41,126 nucleotides of DNA, from NCBI GenBank assembly GCA_000826855.1, contig JTLS01000030.1:1-41126 (forward strand). Direction: 5' to 3'. Both the position numbers and the translations under genes were made by a program. The notes under the pieces are model-generated. The model ran no database searches and was not told where the DNA came from. It was given only the letters and a program-made list of their open reading frames with translations. The stretch's first letter is position 1. The number at the start of each line of letters is the position of its first letter. The DNA is from Basidioascus undulatus (Eukaryota). Shown in pieces: positions 3,878 through 40,598 of the stretch.

Positions 3878-6800
3878 ATGCGGACATTCAAGAACCTCAC
3901 TCATACCGCCGCGGGCGCCCTCACGCTCGCCGCAGTCTCCGTTGCGGCCACGCCTCTGAGCCGTGACGATGGCGGCGAGACCTGGGCACTGAACGACCCG
4001 ACACTGGCTTCCTGCCCGGGCTACCGCGCTCAGAACGTCAAGACCTGGGACTCGGGCTTGGAGGCTACGCTCAAGCTTGCTGGGAAACCGTGCAATGTGT
4101 ATGGGACGGACTACGACAAGTTGCGGCTGACTGTTGAGTATGAGAAGGGTGCGTTTTATTTCGCTTGGATACAGATGTATACGACAGGTATTTCAAAACT
4201 GAACACGTTGTCCCGTTCTGGCAGAGAATCGACTCCACGTCAAGTTGACGGACGCAGACGGCTACGCGCATACCGTCCCGCCCGAGGTCTTCCTCCGCCC
4301 TCAGAACAGCAACACCCCTTCGGCCCAGGCCAAGCTCACCTTCAAGCATGTCGACGAGCCGTTCTCATTCTCGGTTCATCGAGGAGACGAGGTTATCTTC
4401 GACACCGCGGGGTCTCCGCTCGTCTTCGAAGACCAGTACATTCGTCTCGCCACGAACCTGCCGGACAACCCCAACATCTACGGCCTCGGTACGTTTGAAA
4501 TGCCTACGTTCATAGAAAAAAGGGAGACTGACTAGGTATTCCAGGCGAGCACAATGATCCCTTCCGTCTGCCTTCTTCCAACGTGCGTATCGATCCATTT
4601 GTAACACATTCTCCCTTCCGATAGCAAAAGTTAACCTGTTCTCATTTCAGTTCTCTCGCACTCTGTGGGCTCGCGATTCCCCTGGGATTCCTATGGGGAC
4701 GAATCTTGTGAGTGAATTTCTCTTCTCCCTGCAGTTTTCATTTTCTAACCCCCTGTCAATCCCCAGTACGGCACTCACCCCGTATACTACGAGCACCGGG
4801 TGACTGCTGAAGGTCCCCAGACTCACGGCGTATTCCTCTTGAACTCGAATGGTGGGGTTTGTATCGCTTCAGACTCCACAAAGATTCCTTATGCAACTAC
4901 GTCTCCGCAGGCATGGACGTTAAGTTAAACGACACGAACGGCCACACTCTCGAATACAACGCTCTGGGGGGTGTGGCAGTCCCTTTTATTCCGCTTTCTG
5001 AATTATATTGACACGCTGCGACTGCAGGCGAATTCGACTTCTACTTTTTTGCCGGACCGTCCCCTATTGAGGTGACGAAGCAGTATGCGGAAGTGGCTGG
5101 ACTGCCTGCGGGCGTTTCGTATTGGAACTTCGGTCTGCACCAGGTTCGTCTGAACGGTCGGAAGCATCATTCTTCGTGGTACTGACGCGCATCTTGTCAT
5201 CAGTGCCGCTGGGGCTACAGGTACGCTGAGTGTTAAGCGCCATATGGCAGACCGCAGTATTGACGGTGTTCTGTGCAGGGACTGGATCGAGCTTAGTGAA
5301 GTGGTTGCCAACTACTCCGCGGCTGGTATCCCTCTCGAGACAATGTGGGTGCGTAGAATGTTTCAGATTCCCCGTTAAGCAGCAACGACGTGCGGCTTTC
5401 TGACATATTGCGGCACAACAGGCCGACATTGACTACATGCACGAGTGAGTAACCCAGGCTTGTTCTTAGCAATGCAGGGCAGATGTAACGAAAATCTTTT
5501 ATTTCAGTCGCTGGATCATGACTCTCGACCAGGAACGCTTCCCGACCGACCGTATGCGCCAACTGGTTTCCAACCTTCACGATGCGAATCAACACTTCAT
5601 CGTCATGGTGAGACGCCCAATTACCGAGATCGATATTGTGTTTTGCTGATGCTCTTTGCGTTTTGTGCAGGTCGACCCGGCGGTCGTGCGTATCTCTAGG
5701 TCGCAAACTCTAGTGCTCTATTGACGCGCGAAGATCACTCTTCAGGCCGTCCAAGACTACCCCACGTACAACCGGGGCGTTGAGCAGGACATCTTCCTGA
5801 AAAATGCGGACGGCTCGGTTTACATGGGCGTGGTGTGGCCCGGCCCCACTGCCTGGCCTGACTGGTTCCACCCAGCGGCTGAGGATGTAAGTTCGTCCAT
5901 TCGAAGTGAGAGACTGTATTTTCGGACTGAACTCTTATTTCAACAGTACTGGATAAACGAGTTCAAGCTTTTCTTCAACCCTGAAGATGGTATTGACATT
6001 GATGCGCTCTGTAAGCCTGTCTTTTCAGCTCATACATCAGATTGCGTTCTCTTACCGATGATTTTTCGTAGGGATCGACATGAACGAGCCTGTAAATCTC
6101 TGGAAGAATCGCATCTTTCATTAGTTACTTATCCTCTTTCAATCTGCTCTAGGCAAACTTCCAGTCGTCGCCGGACTCGGACGTCTACGAGGTCGCCGAA
6201 GAGCAGCAGGTGCCGCCTGTGCCGCCGCCCGTTCGCGACCCGCCTCGCCCCATTCCTGGGTTCCCCGACACCTACTCGGACAAGTTCAAGAGGGATAGCA
6301 ACAACAGCCCTGGTAATGGCAACGGCAAGGGCCCTGGGAAGAACTACCTGTACCCCAAGTATGAAATTAACAACGCGCTCAAGGTTTGTCGCATCCACTC
6401 GCCTTGTCCTTGCAAGCCGAAAACTGACCGTCTGTGGACATTAGTCGGGCGATCCGGGCCGCATGCAGATCTCTAACTACACTGCGCGTACCGAGTAAGC
6501 CACCCGCTCATTGTGCGTTCTTCTCTCTGGACCTGACCCATCAACGCTTGTCGGCAGCATCGTGCATTACGGCGGGGAAGTCGAGTATGATGTTCACAAC
6601 ATCTACGGTGCGCTCAAACGGCATTACAGTTACGGGGCTACACAGGCTTAAAATTTCTTCTCTTCGGAAGGCGCGATGATGTCGACGGCCTCCCGAAACG
6701 CATTGCTTGCTCGTCGTCCGAACATCAAGCCCCTCATTCTTACTCGCTCCACTTTTAGCGGCTCAGGAAAACATGTCGGTGAGCTCTACCTTTTCAGTAC

Positions 6801-8407
6801 TTTTTCTGCCAACCCTTTCCTGACCATTCTACGTCTTCGCTTTCAGGGAAATGGTATGTTCCGCTGCTACCGTTTGCGGCCCAGAACACATCAACTGAGA
6901 GACTCATGCTTACTCTTTCTTGGTATCTTCAGGCTCGGAGACAACTTATCCACATGGGACCAGTACATTCAAACTATTCGGATGATGCTCGGCTTCGCAT
7001 CTATATACCAGATGCCGATGGTCGGGGCGGACACCTGCGGCTGTACATTTCTGCGATTCGGTCCACACAGCCAGATCGCTAATGTGCGTGTCTCTGCCAG
7101 TCAGCCATAACACGACCGAGACTCTTTGCGCTCGTTGGGCAACTCTCGGTATGCATGTCTCCCTTTTGACCGGACTTGCTGTGTTGCTGAATGTTTTTTG
7201 ACACCGTGGTTCAGGTGCATTTGGACCGTTCTTTAGGTGTGGATTAGTTGCATCCCTTGCACGACCTTCGGCTGACCCCACGGACAGGAACCACAACGCC
7301 GAGGGCTTCCGTCCTCAGGAATTCTACAGGTGGAACCTCACCACCGAGGCTGCCAAAAACGCTCTCGACATACGGTACCGCCTGTACGTCCTTGAATCAC
7401 ATTCGAGTTCAGTGCTACAAATGCCCACTGCCGAGTCTACCCGTTCCGATAGGCTCGACTACCTCTACACTCGCTTCCACCACTCTGAGATTGATGGCAC
7501 GCCGGTCCTTGAGCCTCTCTTCTACGAGTATCCGGCCGATGAGAACACCTTCGGCATCGAAAACCAATTCCTATTCGGCGACCGCATTCTCGTCTCGCCT
7601 GTAGTGGAGGAGAACTCAACTTCGGTCGAGATCTACGTACGTCGAGGTTCTTGAGACACGTTTGAAGCCCAGCACTGATGCCGTCGTGCTCCAGCTCCCG
7701 GACGACGTCTTCTATGACTTCAAAACCTATGCTCCTGTGCGCGGCGCTGGCGCCAACATTACCCTTAACGTAGGTTTCACCCTCTTGACAAATTAGTGTC
7801 TTCGCAACATGCCTTACTGACTGCGCATTTTTCACTACAGGACATTGCGTTCACGGAGATTCCTGTGCACATTCGTGGCGGCTCGATTCTGTCCGTTCCA
7901 AGACCATTTTTCCCTATCCTATCCTGTCCTACCCTAACACTCTCCTCTACTGCAGTCCTCTTCGCTCCGAGAGCGCGATGACGACCACCGAAGTTCGCAC
8001 TAAGTCGTTCACCATTGCCGTCGCAGTCGGCCTCGACGGGACCGCAACTGGCGACTTGGTGATCGACGATGGTGTTTCAATCGAGCAGGCCGTACGGATG
8101 CCTTTCCGCACTTGTTGCCGGCCCTTCGTACTGACGGATCTTCTTTGGCATGCAGGCGACGACCCAGGTCAACTTCAGCTACGCGGCGAAGCGTTTGGAC
8201 GTTTCTGGCCAATTCGACTACACCGCGGAAGAAGCGCGGGTCGACACCGTCGTGTTTATGGGCGTCCCGAGCGCCCCGACGGAGGTCAGCGTCAATCAGC
8301 AGGCTGTCGATGCGTCTCAGATCGCCTACGATGCCGACTCCCAGTCCGTCGTGGTTAAAGGCTTGGACATTCCGCTTACCGGACCGTTTGTTATCATCCA
8401 CAACTGA
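3878..8407 (+). CDS. Secreted glycoside hydrolase family 31 alpha-glucosidase (multi-exon)
   Basis: Signal-peptide-like N-terminus followed by CPGY...G.PCNVYG.D. Spliced motifs: [29 protein letters not shown]...WPDWFHP, DALWIDMNEPANF (nucleophile), [21 protein letters not shown] (acid/base), [24 protein letters not shown]. Stop TGA at 8405-8407. Confidence 0.93.
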
Positions 8408-10452: not shown

Positions 10453-13370
<2,918 letters not shown>

Positions 13371-26317: not shown

Positions 26318-26323
26318 TATAAG
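26318..26323 (+). promoter_or_regulatory. Candidate upstream TATA-like element for the permuted tRNA
   Basis: TATAAG inside an AT-rich patch about 50-65 nt upstream of the tRNA 3' half. Function is inferred only. Confidence 0.3.
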
Positions 26324-26383
26324 GTTTATGTATTTCGTAGCGTAATTTACCGTCACCACAATCATAAGCGAGTGGGAGTCGAG

Positions 26384-26456
26384 ATCAGGGGGTTGCAGGT
26401 TCGATCCCTGCGTCGGTCACGGCCGGCTGGCTCAATGGTAGAGTATCTGACTACGA
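26384..26456 (+). tRNA. Circularly permuted tRNA-Arg(ACG): 3' half (nt 38-73) at 26384-26419, 1-nt spacer, 5' half (nt 1-37) at 26421-26456
   Basis: Acceptor stem GGCCGGC (26421-27)/GTCGGTC (26412-18) plus discriminator A. D arm GCTC-AATGGTA-GAGT. Anticodon stem TCTGA (26446-50)/TCAGG (26385-89) with loop CT-ACG-A|A. Variable loop GGGTT. T arm GCAGG-TTCGATC-CCTGC. All four stems pair fully (with G-U pairs) once the halves are swapped. Confidence 0.88.
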
Positions 26457-26457
26457 C

Positions 26458-26463
26458 TTTTTT
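26458..26463 (+). terminator. RNA polymerase III oligo-T terminator
   Basis: T6 run two nt after the tRNA 5'-half anticodon loop. A longer T-run follows at about 26507-26516. Confidence 0.65.
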
Positions 26464-26656
26464 GCTCCTTGTTGCTCTTGCATTTTCATGTCCGAGATGT
26501 TGTTCCTTTTTTTTTTCTTTTGATCCTGGCCGAACCTACGGTCAGAAGCGCGCCCACAGTGTTAAGCTGCTGCTCAAGCACCGTGCGACAATGGAACGTT
26601 AGATGAACAACCCCCAGGCGCAAGAAGTGCGACAAGAGAATCGCAACGCCGAACGC

Positions 26657-34689: not shown

Positions 34690-37095
<2,406 letters not shown>

Positions 37096-38159: not shown

Positions 38160-40598
38160 ATGTCGTCCCGTGCGGCGAACGTCGCGACTTCGACGCATGG
38201 TCAAATCGCCAGCAGCAGCAAGCGCGAGGCGGACAAGTGGCAGTTCCGCGAACACCAAGGGTGCGCTCCGGCTCGTGTTACTCCAAAGCGCCCAGAACCA
38301 TTGAACCGATACGAGTTGCGGCCCATGGGGAGCCACGGGCATGATCTTTGGGTTTCCGCTGATGACGTGAGCCCTTTTACTCCCCGGAAGCGAAATGCAC
38401 TGAACCTCTCGACTTCTTGCAGGTATGACTACTTCTGGATCTGCGTGCAATTCTACGACGGGCACTTTGCGCTCCCCGCGAAGGGCGAGGGCTTTGTCGC
38501 CTTCCTGGGGCGGATGGTCGAGCACGTCAAGCAGGTGCTTCGCCTTCCCTTCACTTCCCGCCTAGCACCTCACCAAGTTGACCTTCTCCCCCCTTCCGCG
38601 AGCAGGATGCCTCCCCCACCCCACGCGCAGCAGTGATCTACCTCTCGCTCATGTCGCTCGAGCTGGTCCTGGCGCTTGTTATGTCCGGGCACGTGCAGGA
38701 GGGTCTGCCGATCTCGTCGCTCGACTACAAGACGCTCAGCTACCAGTGCAGCGCGCTCTCGTCGTACTACACGACGATCGCGATCTTCGCTGCCCTCCAG
38801 TTCACGGGGCTCTTCCGCATCCAGGAGGTTATAGAGCAGTACGGGCACCTCATGACCATCGCCACTTTCGCTAGCTTTGGGATCAGCCTGTGGACGTACG
38901 TCGCGGCGATCTTGAACGGAAGCCAGATCCGCATGAGCGGCAACTTCTTCTGTGAGTTCTGTTTGCTCAGAAGAAGAACGCCCATAAATCTGGAAGCTTA
39001 CAGTTGCGGCACTCGCCTCCGGTTGACAGATGACTTCTTCATGGGTGCCGGGTGAGCTCAATCTCGCGACATTCCCATGCGGTGAGAGAAATCTTTGCTG
39101 AAGCCGTTTTCCAGCCTCAAGCCGCGCATCGGCCGCGTCGACCTCAAAGTCTGGGCGCTCGTCCGGTGCGCCTGTCCTTCGCAGTGCTTCAGTTACAGAT
39201 TCGACATGCTCACATGCTGATCACACATCACAGCGTCCCTTGAATCCTCCACACCATGATCGCGCTGTCAGCCGCGTTCAAGCAGTATGAGCAATACGGC
39301 TACCTGTCTCCGTGAGCTTGTTAATTGACATGCTCCTTCGTTTTAACCCTGGCCATTCTGATCGCTCACGCCCTCAGAACATGCTTTCATGATGCTCGCC
39401 AGTGCGCTGTACAGCAACGCTTGCGCGAAAGGCGAGGAGTGCGTTACTCAGACTTGGGACGTTAAGTATGTACAGGCTGTTTTCCGTTGTCGTCTAGTCC
39501 TCTGACGCAGTTGCCATGCTGTTAGGTACGAGAAGTGGGACTTCATGGTCATCTTCTGGTATGTACCCGCCAGACAAAACTTTCCCTCGAACACCACGCT
39601 GCGCATGATCACGCTTCCACGTGCTGATGCCGAGCTGCGTTGCAGGAACTTCGCCGCTGCGCCGTTCACCTACTCGTACTGATCCTCTTCATGGCAACAC
39701 ACGACTAGGCCAGGTACCGTTTCTCGGCGCCGGTTTACATCGCGCACTACTCTGCGTCACTGCTCGCTTATTACATGTCCGTCTTATCCCCATCGCTCTC
39801 TTTCTCACTTCATCCCGATAAGACCCTCACCACTCTGACCAGCCGCCGCGCTGGCTGCAGTTTCGACACGCCCAACTCGCAGAAGAGCCGGTTCCGCATG
39901 CAGATGCAGGGCGTCTACGTGCCGCGGTGGAACTTCCCACAGCTGCCCTGGGGCACGATCCACAACCCGAGATACATCAGCACCGAGCAGGGCAACAAGC
40001 TGCTCACCAGCGGCTGGTGGGGCATCGTGCGCAAGCCCGTGAGTCTTCTGTTCAGGAGCCGCTCGCTTCCCGACAACCATCCCACTTAATATGATTGGGG
40101 CTTGCGGCGACCGAAACAGAACTACACGGCGGACTGGACGCAGTCGGTGCTGTGGGGCATCCCTGCTGGCTTTACTGCACCCCTGCCGCACTGGTACGGC
40201 ATCTGGTTCTTCATCGTGTTGGTCCACGTAGGTCAAATGTGTAGCCTCTCGCTCATGAGGCCGCTAACGCTGGTCCTCACGTTCTAACAGCGCTGCGAGC
40301 GTGACAATGAGCGGCAAGTCGGTTTCTTCTGTCGCTGCCCTTGGCGACCACGCTTCACATTCATCCCTCACTTTGCTCGCTCTTCAAGACACCGCGACAT
40401 CTAACTCGAGCTCTGACCGCTGATGTTGATGCCGCGTCAACAGGTGCAGTGCCTGCTACGGAGCCGACTGGAAGCGGTACTGCTCGATTGTCAAGCACCG
40501 CTTCATTCCATTCGGTAAGCAGCGGCATGGCAAGGCGGATCTCAGTCTCAGGGACACTGCAGCGTTGATCAATCCGCTTTGTCAATGCAGTGTACTAG
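38160..40598 (+). pseudogene. ERG4: Sterol C-24(28) reductase (ERG4/ERG24 family, ERG4-like) with inactivating lesions
   Basis: Motifs GPWGATGMIFGFP, RMSGNF..DFFMG..LKPRIG.VDLK, NACAKGEEC..QTWD...EKW.FM.IFWN, SQKSRFR, FPQLPWG, LLTSGWWG..RKP|NYTADW, HRCERD, DWKRYC..V..RFIPFVY*. Lesions: TGA at 39241-39243 replacing W of RVPW, a frameshift at about 39680, TAG at 39706-39708, and a probable frameshift at about 38316. Confidence 0.88.

Follow-up and report, generated by a model that had tools for sequence, protein, structure and literature searches.

Permuted tRNA genes, in which the tRNA's 3' half is placed ahead of its 5' half, have been regarded as an oddity of some unicellular algae, a single nucleomorph and a single archaeon, and are often discussed as ancient relics or tied to unusual endonucleases. 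The closest described systems are the type II genes of the Mamiellophyceae (Ostreococcus and Micromonas) and of the Bigelowiella natans nucleomorph; the locus considered here is like them in its 3'-half-first order on one strand, its 37/38 junction and its lack of an intron (Maruyama et al. 2010, as summarised in the Soma review, PMC3978253). It also has in common with them the potential for a relaxed hBH motif of the kind suited to the eukaryal endonuclease, an AT-rich upstream region and a downstream T-stretch, as these are described in that review (PMC3978253). The hosts of those genes are algae, whereas the present host is a heterotrophic basidiomycete; the Arg(ACG) isoacceptor is absent from Table 1 of the review, and the linker of 5-64 bp in the Mamiellophyceae and B. 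natans compares with 1 nt here and 8 nt in the relatives of this gene (PMC3978253). A further difference from these genes lies in the central helix of the motif, which here contains a U33xC mismatch and is disfavoured in folding.

C. merolae offers a second comparison; its permuted genes resemble the present one in layout, in the TATA-like element upstream and in the T-stretch downstream (PMC3978253). In C. merolae the circular intermediate, its opening by RNase P and tRNase Z, and CCA addition have been shown experimentally, whereas the gene here is known from DNA alone; C. merolae also uses junctions at 20/21, 37/38, 50/51 and 59/60, against the one junction type found here, and its BHB motifs are strict or relaxed and its linkers 7-74 nt long (PMC3978253). 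The permuted tRNA-Tyr(GTA) gene of Thermofilum pendens likewise has a 1-nt intervening sequence (Chan et al. 2011, via Table 1 of PMC3978253), and the Soma review raises the question of how an acceptor loop this small is taken out; this gene differs in being archaeal, in its 59/60 junction, in its encoded CCA, which effectively makes the loop longer, and in having an intron at 37/38 (PMC3978253).

Ordinary intron-containing pre-tRNAs of fungi and other eukaryotes are cut at the same places (after 37 and before 38), with the same potential pair between C32 and the third nucleotide ahead of the 3' splice site, closing a 3-nt bulge, and the same exon ends for endonuclease and ligase (PMC10485636). 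Unlike in such a pre-tRNA, the "intron" here is open, consisting of the transcript's own 5' and 3' ends; ligation would therefore close a circle that must be opened at the acceptor end. A 2026 review, in the parts available, confines the eukaryotic permuted tRNA cases to unicellular algae (PMC13578239), and the openly accessible full-text literature on permuted tRNA and fungi or basidiomycetes yielded no fungal permuted tRNA gene. We read the two transcript ends as those of a working circularly permuted type II tRNA-Arg(ACG) gene in a basidiomycete fungus, processed along the pathway proposed below; we place this reading about level between right and wrong.

A tRNA-Arg(ACG) gene in permuted order

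The window (the whole stretch of DNA that was analysed, 41,126 nt) is positions 1-41,126 of contig JTLS01000030.1 of the Basidioascus undulatus assembly GCA_000826855.1, forward strand. The second half of the tRNA comes first on this strand, with positions 38-73 at 26384-26419, followed by C26420 and then by positions 1-37 at 26421-26456. When 26421-26456 is joined by script to 26384-26419, ARAGORN returns a 72-nt tRNA-Arg(ACG) cloverleaf with acceptor, D, anticodon and T stems of 7, 4, 5 and 5 bp; of the G-U pairs, the acceptor stem has two and the D and anticodon stems one each. The halves meet at 37/38, the 5' half ending in CTACGA with A37 at 26456 and the 3' half opening with A38 at 26384; the 37/38 cut alone, with no other cut, gives the 7-nt anticodon loop CUACGAA. 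The features of the locus are listed below, the promoter elements and the back-up terminator being candidates read from the sequence.

26318-26324, + strand: TATAAGG, TATA-like, candidate upstream promoter element for Pol III, some 54 nt ahead of 26372
26343-26349, + strand: TAATTTA, second candidate TATA-like element, 23-29 nt before 26372
26372-26383, + strand: leader GTGGGAGTCGAG, the part of the 5' flank common to a second locus (contig X3)
26378-26381, + strand: GTCG, leader positions -6 to -3; A26382 and G26383 are the bulge nucleotides
26384-26419, + strand: 3' half of tRNA-Arg(ACG), positions 38-73 (anticodon-stem 3' strand, variable loop, T arm, acceptor 3' strand, discriminator A26419; ARAGORN cloverleaf)
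26398-26408, + strand: B box GGTTCGATCCC, the sole exact B-box match in the window
26420, + strand: intervening C (1 nt) between discriminator A73 and G1
26421-26456, + strand: 5' half of tRNA-Arg(ACG), positions 1-37 (acceptor 5' strand, D arm, anticodon-stem 5' strand; ARAGORN cloverleaf)
26428-26438, + strand: A-box region, in the D arm of the 5' half
26451-26456, + strand: C32 (26451), then U33; anticodon ACG (26453-26455); A37 (26456)
26457-26463, + strand: trailer, C26457 and T6 (26458-26463), likely Pol III terminator, one base past position 37
26464-26467, + strand: GCTC, past T6, complementary to GAGT at 26370-26373
26507-26516, + strand: T10 run, possible back-up terminator

Plain ARAGORN reports 0 tRNA genes in the window, whether introns are allowed or not, and Rfam at gathering thresholds reports no family there; since both miss the locus, fungal tRNA sets made with standard tools may miss such genes. 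A scan for permuted genes passed self-concatenated slices of 84, 100 and 120 nt, taken every 8 nt across the whole 41-kb window, to ARAGORN; all 20 hits lie inside 26321-26512, with 0 elsewhere in the window. The original prediction had taken a permuted tRNA as its premise, and this premise is borne out by the rejoined cloverleaf and by its being the single such locus in the scan. The locus belongs to a known class, the type II (37/38) circularly permuted tRNA genes, as a tRNA-Arg(ACG) member with a fungal host.

The A and B boxes stand in reversed order at the locus; a start directed by the A box would lie within the 3' half, and the RNA made from it would be of no use, which means that function would require an upstream start. 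Algal permuted tRNA genes carry a TATA-like or AT-rich element upstream and a T-stretch downstream (Soma review, PMC3978253), and candidates for both are present here. TAATTTA sits at the spacing expected for a start near 26372, which is suggestive only. The upstream sequence of contig X3 is unlike that of the window and is likewise AT-rich about 18-27 nt before the equivalent of 26372. Similarity between X3 and the window begins abruptly at 26372, 12 nt ahead of the 3' half; this sharp edge could mark a transcription start or the duplication boundary of a gene unit. The T-run one base past position 37 is retained in the relatives. The T10 run is followed by C and T4 (26507-26521 in all, about 45 nt past T6), and the downstream flank of a relative consists of repeated T5-T7 runs.

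Relatives in soil metagenomes

A read-archive index was queried with six words sampled from the locus; besides two data sets that are probably from the source itself, one soil metagenome held five of the six, and 16 metagenome runs, mostly from soil or rhizosphere, held two. No RNA run was among those returned for these six words. Four runs from four studies were then compared at 80% likeness, three of them two-word runs among the 16. All four gave contigs, and the five pieces obtained contain three further versions of the permuted gene; four pieces bridge the 3' half into the 5' half in permuted order, and the fifth aligns from G1.

The version nearest to the window is X3, a single 151-nt contig whose gap-free match to 26372-26461 contains one other letter. 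Its 12-nt leader and 1-nt linker are those of the window, whereas its 54 nt ahead of 26372 do not resemble it. X3 appears to be a second locus, from the same organism or one very close to it, although it may be a chimeric low-depth contig or a recent duplication. The second version was recovered as identical sequence from three studies (X10, X15 record 2 and X17) and matches 26384-26463 with two other letters; behind 26420 it has AAATATT inserted (in three of the four bridging contigs), giving the 8-nt linker CAAATATT. Its leader is unlike that of the window except near the end, where the last 12 nt read GGGTCTGTCGTA against GTGGGAGTCGAG, and its downstream flank is a T-rich tract. The third version, X15 record 3, matches 26421-26464 with four other letters; its loose end carries a T arm and an acceptor 3' strand, both different from those of the window, then A and the 8 nt CTTGACAT before G1. 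It represents a third permuted gene, further removed and with a linker of 8 nt, and its four differences presumably make up for the change in its 3' acceptor strand. Alignment of the X10, X15 (both records) and X17 contigs extends as far as 26463 or 26464.

In the bridging contigs the body of the gene differs by one or two letters in 80-90 nt and the flanks are unlike; the sole indel among the variants (7 nt) falls exactly in the acceptor linker, and no linker variant contains a T-run of four or more. The recurrent permuted order, the conserved body, the free flanks and the confinement of the indel to the linker together argue for a maintained gene rather than a one-off rearrangement, and as a pattern of variation this reads as purifying selection on the permuted gene. 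Pattern scans for a permuted tRNA-Arg gene in JGI metagenome contigs and in prokaryote genome contigs returned 0 loci.

Leader-trailer pairing and its two registers

The original prediction had the leader pair with the trailer, and its letters and coordinates are right: 26370-26383 (GAGTGGGAGTCGAG) is complementary to 26454-26467 (CGACTTTTTTGCTC). RNAduplex gives -11.6 kcal/mol for 12 pairs, 26370-26381 with 26454-26461 and 26464-26467, interrupted by a U bulge of 2 nt. The core of this duplex is an 8-bp run, GGGAGTCG/CGACTTTT, of 26374-26381 with 26454-26461, made up of three G-C, two A-U and three G-U pairs. GCTC at 26464-26467 is probably outside the transcript unless T6 is read through; when the trailer is ended at the T-run (26451-26462) the 8 pairs are left at -8.4 kcal/mol, as had been claimed for a transcript ending inside the T-run. 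Minimum free energy folds of 26350-26465, the segment singled out for folding in the prediction, and of 26370-26461 both contain the 8-bp helix; the whole-molecule z-scores of -0.17 and -0.93 respectively are not significant. Against the same shortened trailer, 161 of the 11748 14-mers of the window (0.014) reach the 8-bp run and 92 (0.008) reach the duplex energy; among 2000 composition-preserving shuffles of the leader the corresponding fractions are 0.064 and 0.044. The complementarity is real and modestly above chance; part of it (half) comes from a purine-rich leader lying opposite a T-run that is already there as the Pol III terminator.

A hand alignment from the junction, with two independent leaders, shows which part of the pairing is kept in relatives. 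The leaders share GTCG at -6 to -3 and agree at two of the remaining ten positions between -14 and -1; where the leader is GGGTCTGTCGTA, in the relative, a GGG run stands 2 nt further out, and the helix of 8-12 bp is reduced to 4 bp (GUCG with C35-G36-A37-C+1). The idea that the leader-trailer pairing persists in relatives thus holds for the 4 bp of GTCG and fails for the long helix. Positions -2 and -1 differ, being AG in the window and TA in the relative. G-3 is retained in the independent leader, so that a C32:G-3 pair is possible there too. There is no covariation within GTCG, the motif being invariant in both independent leaders, and hence none to choose between its two possible partners.

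The first of these partners gives the anticodon-intron register, whose coordinates the prediction had right. G26381, the third nucleotide before 26383|26384, can pair with C32 (26451), which leaves A26382, G26383 and A26384 (A-2, G-1 and A38) as a 3-nt bulge; in this register -1 and -2 lie in the bulge with A38 and are free to vary. A relaxed hBH motif can be drawn, with the anticodon stem as h, A-2/G-1/A38 as B, and 32-35 against -3 to -6, paired in three of four positions, as H; the central helix has one U33xC mismatch, and P(C32:G-3) is 0.00. A strict hBHBh' motif was considered and rejected; its outer helix would be one A-U and three G-U pairs to the U-tail, is missing in the relative and is energetically unfavourable. 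The second partner of GUCG is C35-G36-A37-C+1, to which it is perfectly complementary.

Energies were computed by nearest-neighbour folding for the predicted transcript 26372-26462. The rod, which is the minimum free energy structure, has -31.7 kcal/mol, the 8-bp helix with a 3x3 internal loop -29.9, and the GUCG/CGAC helix alone -26.5, against -21.3 for the cloverleaf alone; the anticodon-intron helix alone (C32:G-3, A34:U-5, C35:G-6) has -19.9, and together with the outer A-U/G-U helix -17.1 kcal/mol. In the ensemble P(G-3:C35) is 0.98, P(G-6:C+1) 0.99 and P(G-3:C32) 0.00, from which the free RNA should take the register with the 37|+1 cut inside a helix. The favoured rod is predicted to bury both cut sites, and in the rod of the window copy -1 and -2 pair with C32 and U33, a pairing lost in the relative. 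The bases for a TSEN-like anticodon-intron geometry are available both here and in the independent relative, while folding disfavours that geometry (-17.1 against -31.7 kcal/mol, with a probability of 0.00); the textbook register would need to be imposed by the enzyme, or by La on the U-tail. The cloverleaf stems stay intact in the predicted precursor fold, and the acceptor is closed as 6 bp with a 4-nt loop, leaving the mature domain available.

The dominance of the second register in the ensemble and its lower energies, for the rod and even for GUCG/CGAC by itself, speak for an alternative in which the gene is functional and the leader-trailer pairing is an end clamp or anticodon mask, not a splice-site motif. 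GUCG with C35-G36-A37-C+1, extended in this copy by purines and the U-tail, would hold the ends together and shield them from exonucleases; the helix would be melted or remodelled before cleavage, by La on the U-tail or by the enzyme, or else RNase P would act first and the pieces would then be handled as a split tRNA. The perfect 4-bp match is kept in the independent relative, which suits such a role, as does the statement of a 2023 TSEN review that the 5' splice site, seen in none of the structures, needs substantial local remodelling (PMC10485636). The extension past 4 bp, however, is not conserved, the 37|+1 cut would fall within the helix, and C32 would be unpaired or paired to G-1, so that the anticodon-intron pair, critical in eukaryotes (PMC10485636), would be missing. 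We hold the clamp to be unlikely, though far from negligible.

For the reading of the ends as a splice substrate, the poor energetics of the anticodon-intron register temper the argument and do not defeat it, since in eukaryotic TSEN, as that review describes it, the proximal anticodon-intron pair alone is conserved and the enzyme measures the mature body (PMC10485636). The proposal that the two ends act as a split intron for TSEN and Trl1 finds partial support in the type II layout, which is the topological equivalent of a split intron, in the availability of the C32:G-3 geometry and in the algal precedent; it is weakened by a long helix that is not conserved and by a register that is not favoured.

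Proposed processing and the acceptor linker

In the pathway we propose, every RNA step is one that we infer, with cleavage, ligation and circle opening taken by analogy. Pol III would start upstream of the 3' half, possibly near 26372, by means of an upstream AT-rich element, and would end in the T6 run at 26458-26463. The body would fold as a tRNA with the A73-C linker closing the acceptor stem, and GUCG (-6 to -3) would pair with the anticodon loop to form the C32:G-3 pair, A-2, G-1 and A38 bulging out in a relaxed hBH with its one U33xC mismatch. The fungal splicing endonuclease, placed mainly by the mature domain, would cut at 26456|26457 and 26383|26384, and a Trl1-type tRNA ligase would join A37 to A38 into a circle; for the enzymes this would be an ordinary exon ligation, and joining of the ends by endonuclease and tRNA ligase is the route demonstrated for algal permuted tRNAs in the Soma 2014 review (PMC3978253). 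RNase P would then open the acceptor loop 5' of G1, leaving this copy with an A73-C74 end that the CCA-adding enzyme could complete.

The step at the acceptor end turns on the linker, which is a single C in the window and in X3 and C plus 7 nt in the other two variants (CAAATATT and CTTGACAT); all three forms begin with C. In the folds the 4-nt loop is made at the expense of the G1:C72 pair. Eukaryotic intervening sequences range over 5-74 bp in Table 1 of the Soma review, where 1 bp occurs only in the archaeal T. pendens tRNA-Tyr (PMC3978253); the 2-nt connection A73-C is thus shorter than any eukaryotic case in that table (minimum 5 bp), and RNase P may fail to open it. Cutting the short form 5' of G1 would yield an A73-C74 end needing CA only. 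If RNase P cannot cut, the window and X3 copies may be disabled descendants of a gene whose linker had 8 nt. How RNase P acts on a nearly closed acceptor end is the sharp question that the 1-nt linker raises.

An unlikely alternative is that the window copy is dead or dying, having suffered a 7-nt deletion from a longer-linker gene, with a 1-nt linker that cannot be opened or with no upstream transcription, and with the pairing as inherited baggage, even should the relatives with 8-nt linkers be functional. Such a history would agree with the C plus 7 nt that both other variants have between A73 and G1, with a 1-nt linker below every eukaryotic value in Table 1 (PMC3978253), with the need to open G1:C72 for a 4-nt loop, and with the reversed box order. 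The body is intact in all its stems, however, and X3, whose upstream flank differs, agrees with it in the 1-nt linker and the 12-nt leader and shows one other letter, which argues against free decay; the T. pendens tRNA-Tyr, too, is listed with an intervening sequence of 1 nt (PMC3978253). A last alternative, that there is no gene but chance or a rearrangement relic (left, for example, by a tandem pair of tRNA genes or by a tRNA-derived repeat) whose ends are complementary by accident, could appeal to a complementarity modestly above chance (0.044-0.064 against leader shuffles) and to the non-significant fold z-scores, but is very improbable given the perfect cloverleaf and the recurrence of permuted order, near-identical body, linker-confined indel and T-run with unlike flanks in four runs from four studies.

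If the permuted gene is maintained in a basidiomycete, as the preferred reading has it, standard opisthokont machinery (a four-subunit ruler TSEN, a Trl1-type ligase and RNase P) can support the permuted layout, and that layout arises independently. A bolder extension, which we regard as speculative and rather improbable, is that some lineage of soil-dwelling basidiomycetes draws its tRNA-Arg(ICG) from a whole family of such back-to-front genes, which would be the first permuted tRNAs of opisthokonts; short-linker circles, having exactly A73-C74 ahead of G1, would then need a single RNase P cut and CA addition and would have a tRNase Z-independent 3' end. Were this so, the C74-only linker would also be in keeping with an origin in which a circularised pre-tRNA with processed ends was reverse-transcribed (model C of the Soma review), in place of tandem duplication.

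The window, which its protein hits assign to a basidiomycete nuclear genome, has few long open reading frames and is intron-dense, its genes lying in short exons. An aminodeoxychorismate (PABA) synthase gene of several exons occupies 10590-12784 on the - strand; the best named hits of its exon are Pucciniomycotina and other Basidiomycota at no more than 38% identity, which leaves the source fungus without a near relative in the protein database. Exon fragments of a UDP-glucose pyrophosphorylase lie at 35720-36190 (- strand); Basidiomycota lead the hits, with identities reaching 86%, and the best of these are scattered over Dacrymycetes, Cantharellales, Ustilaginomycotina and Tremellomycetes. 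Exon fragments of a GH31 glycosidase are found at 5725-7651 and of an ERG4/ERG24 sterol reductase at 39709-40086, both on the + strand.
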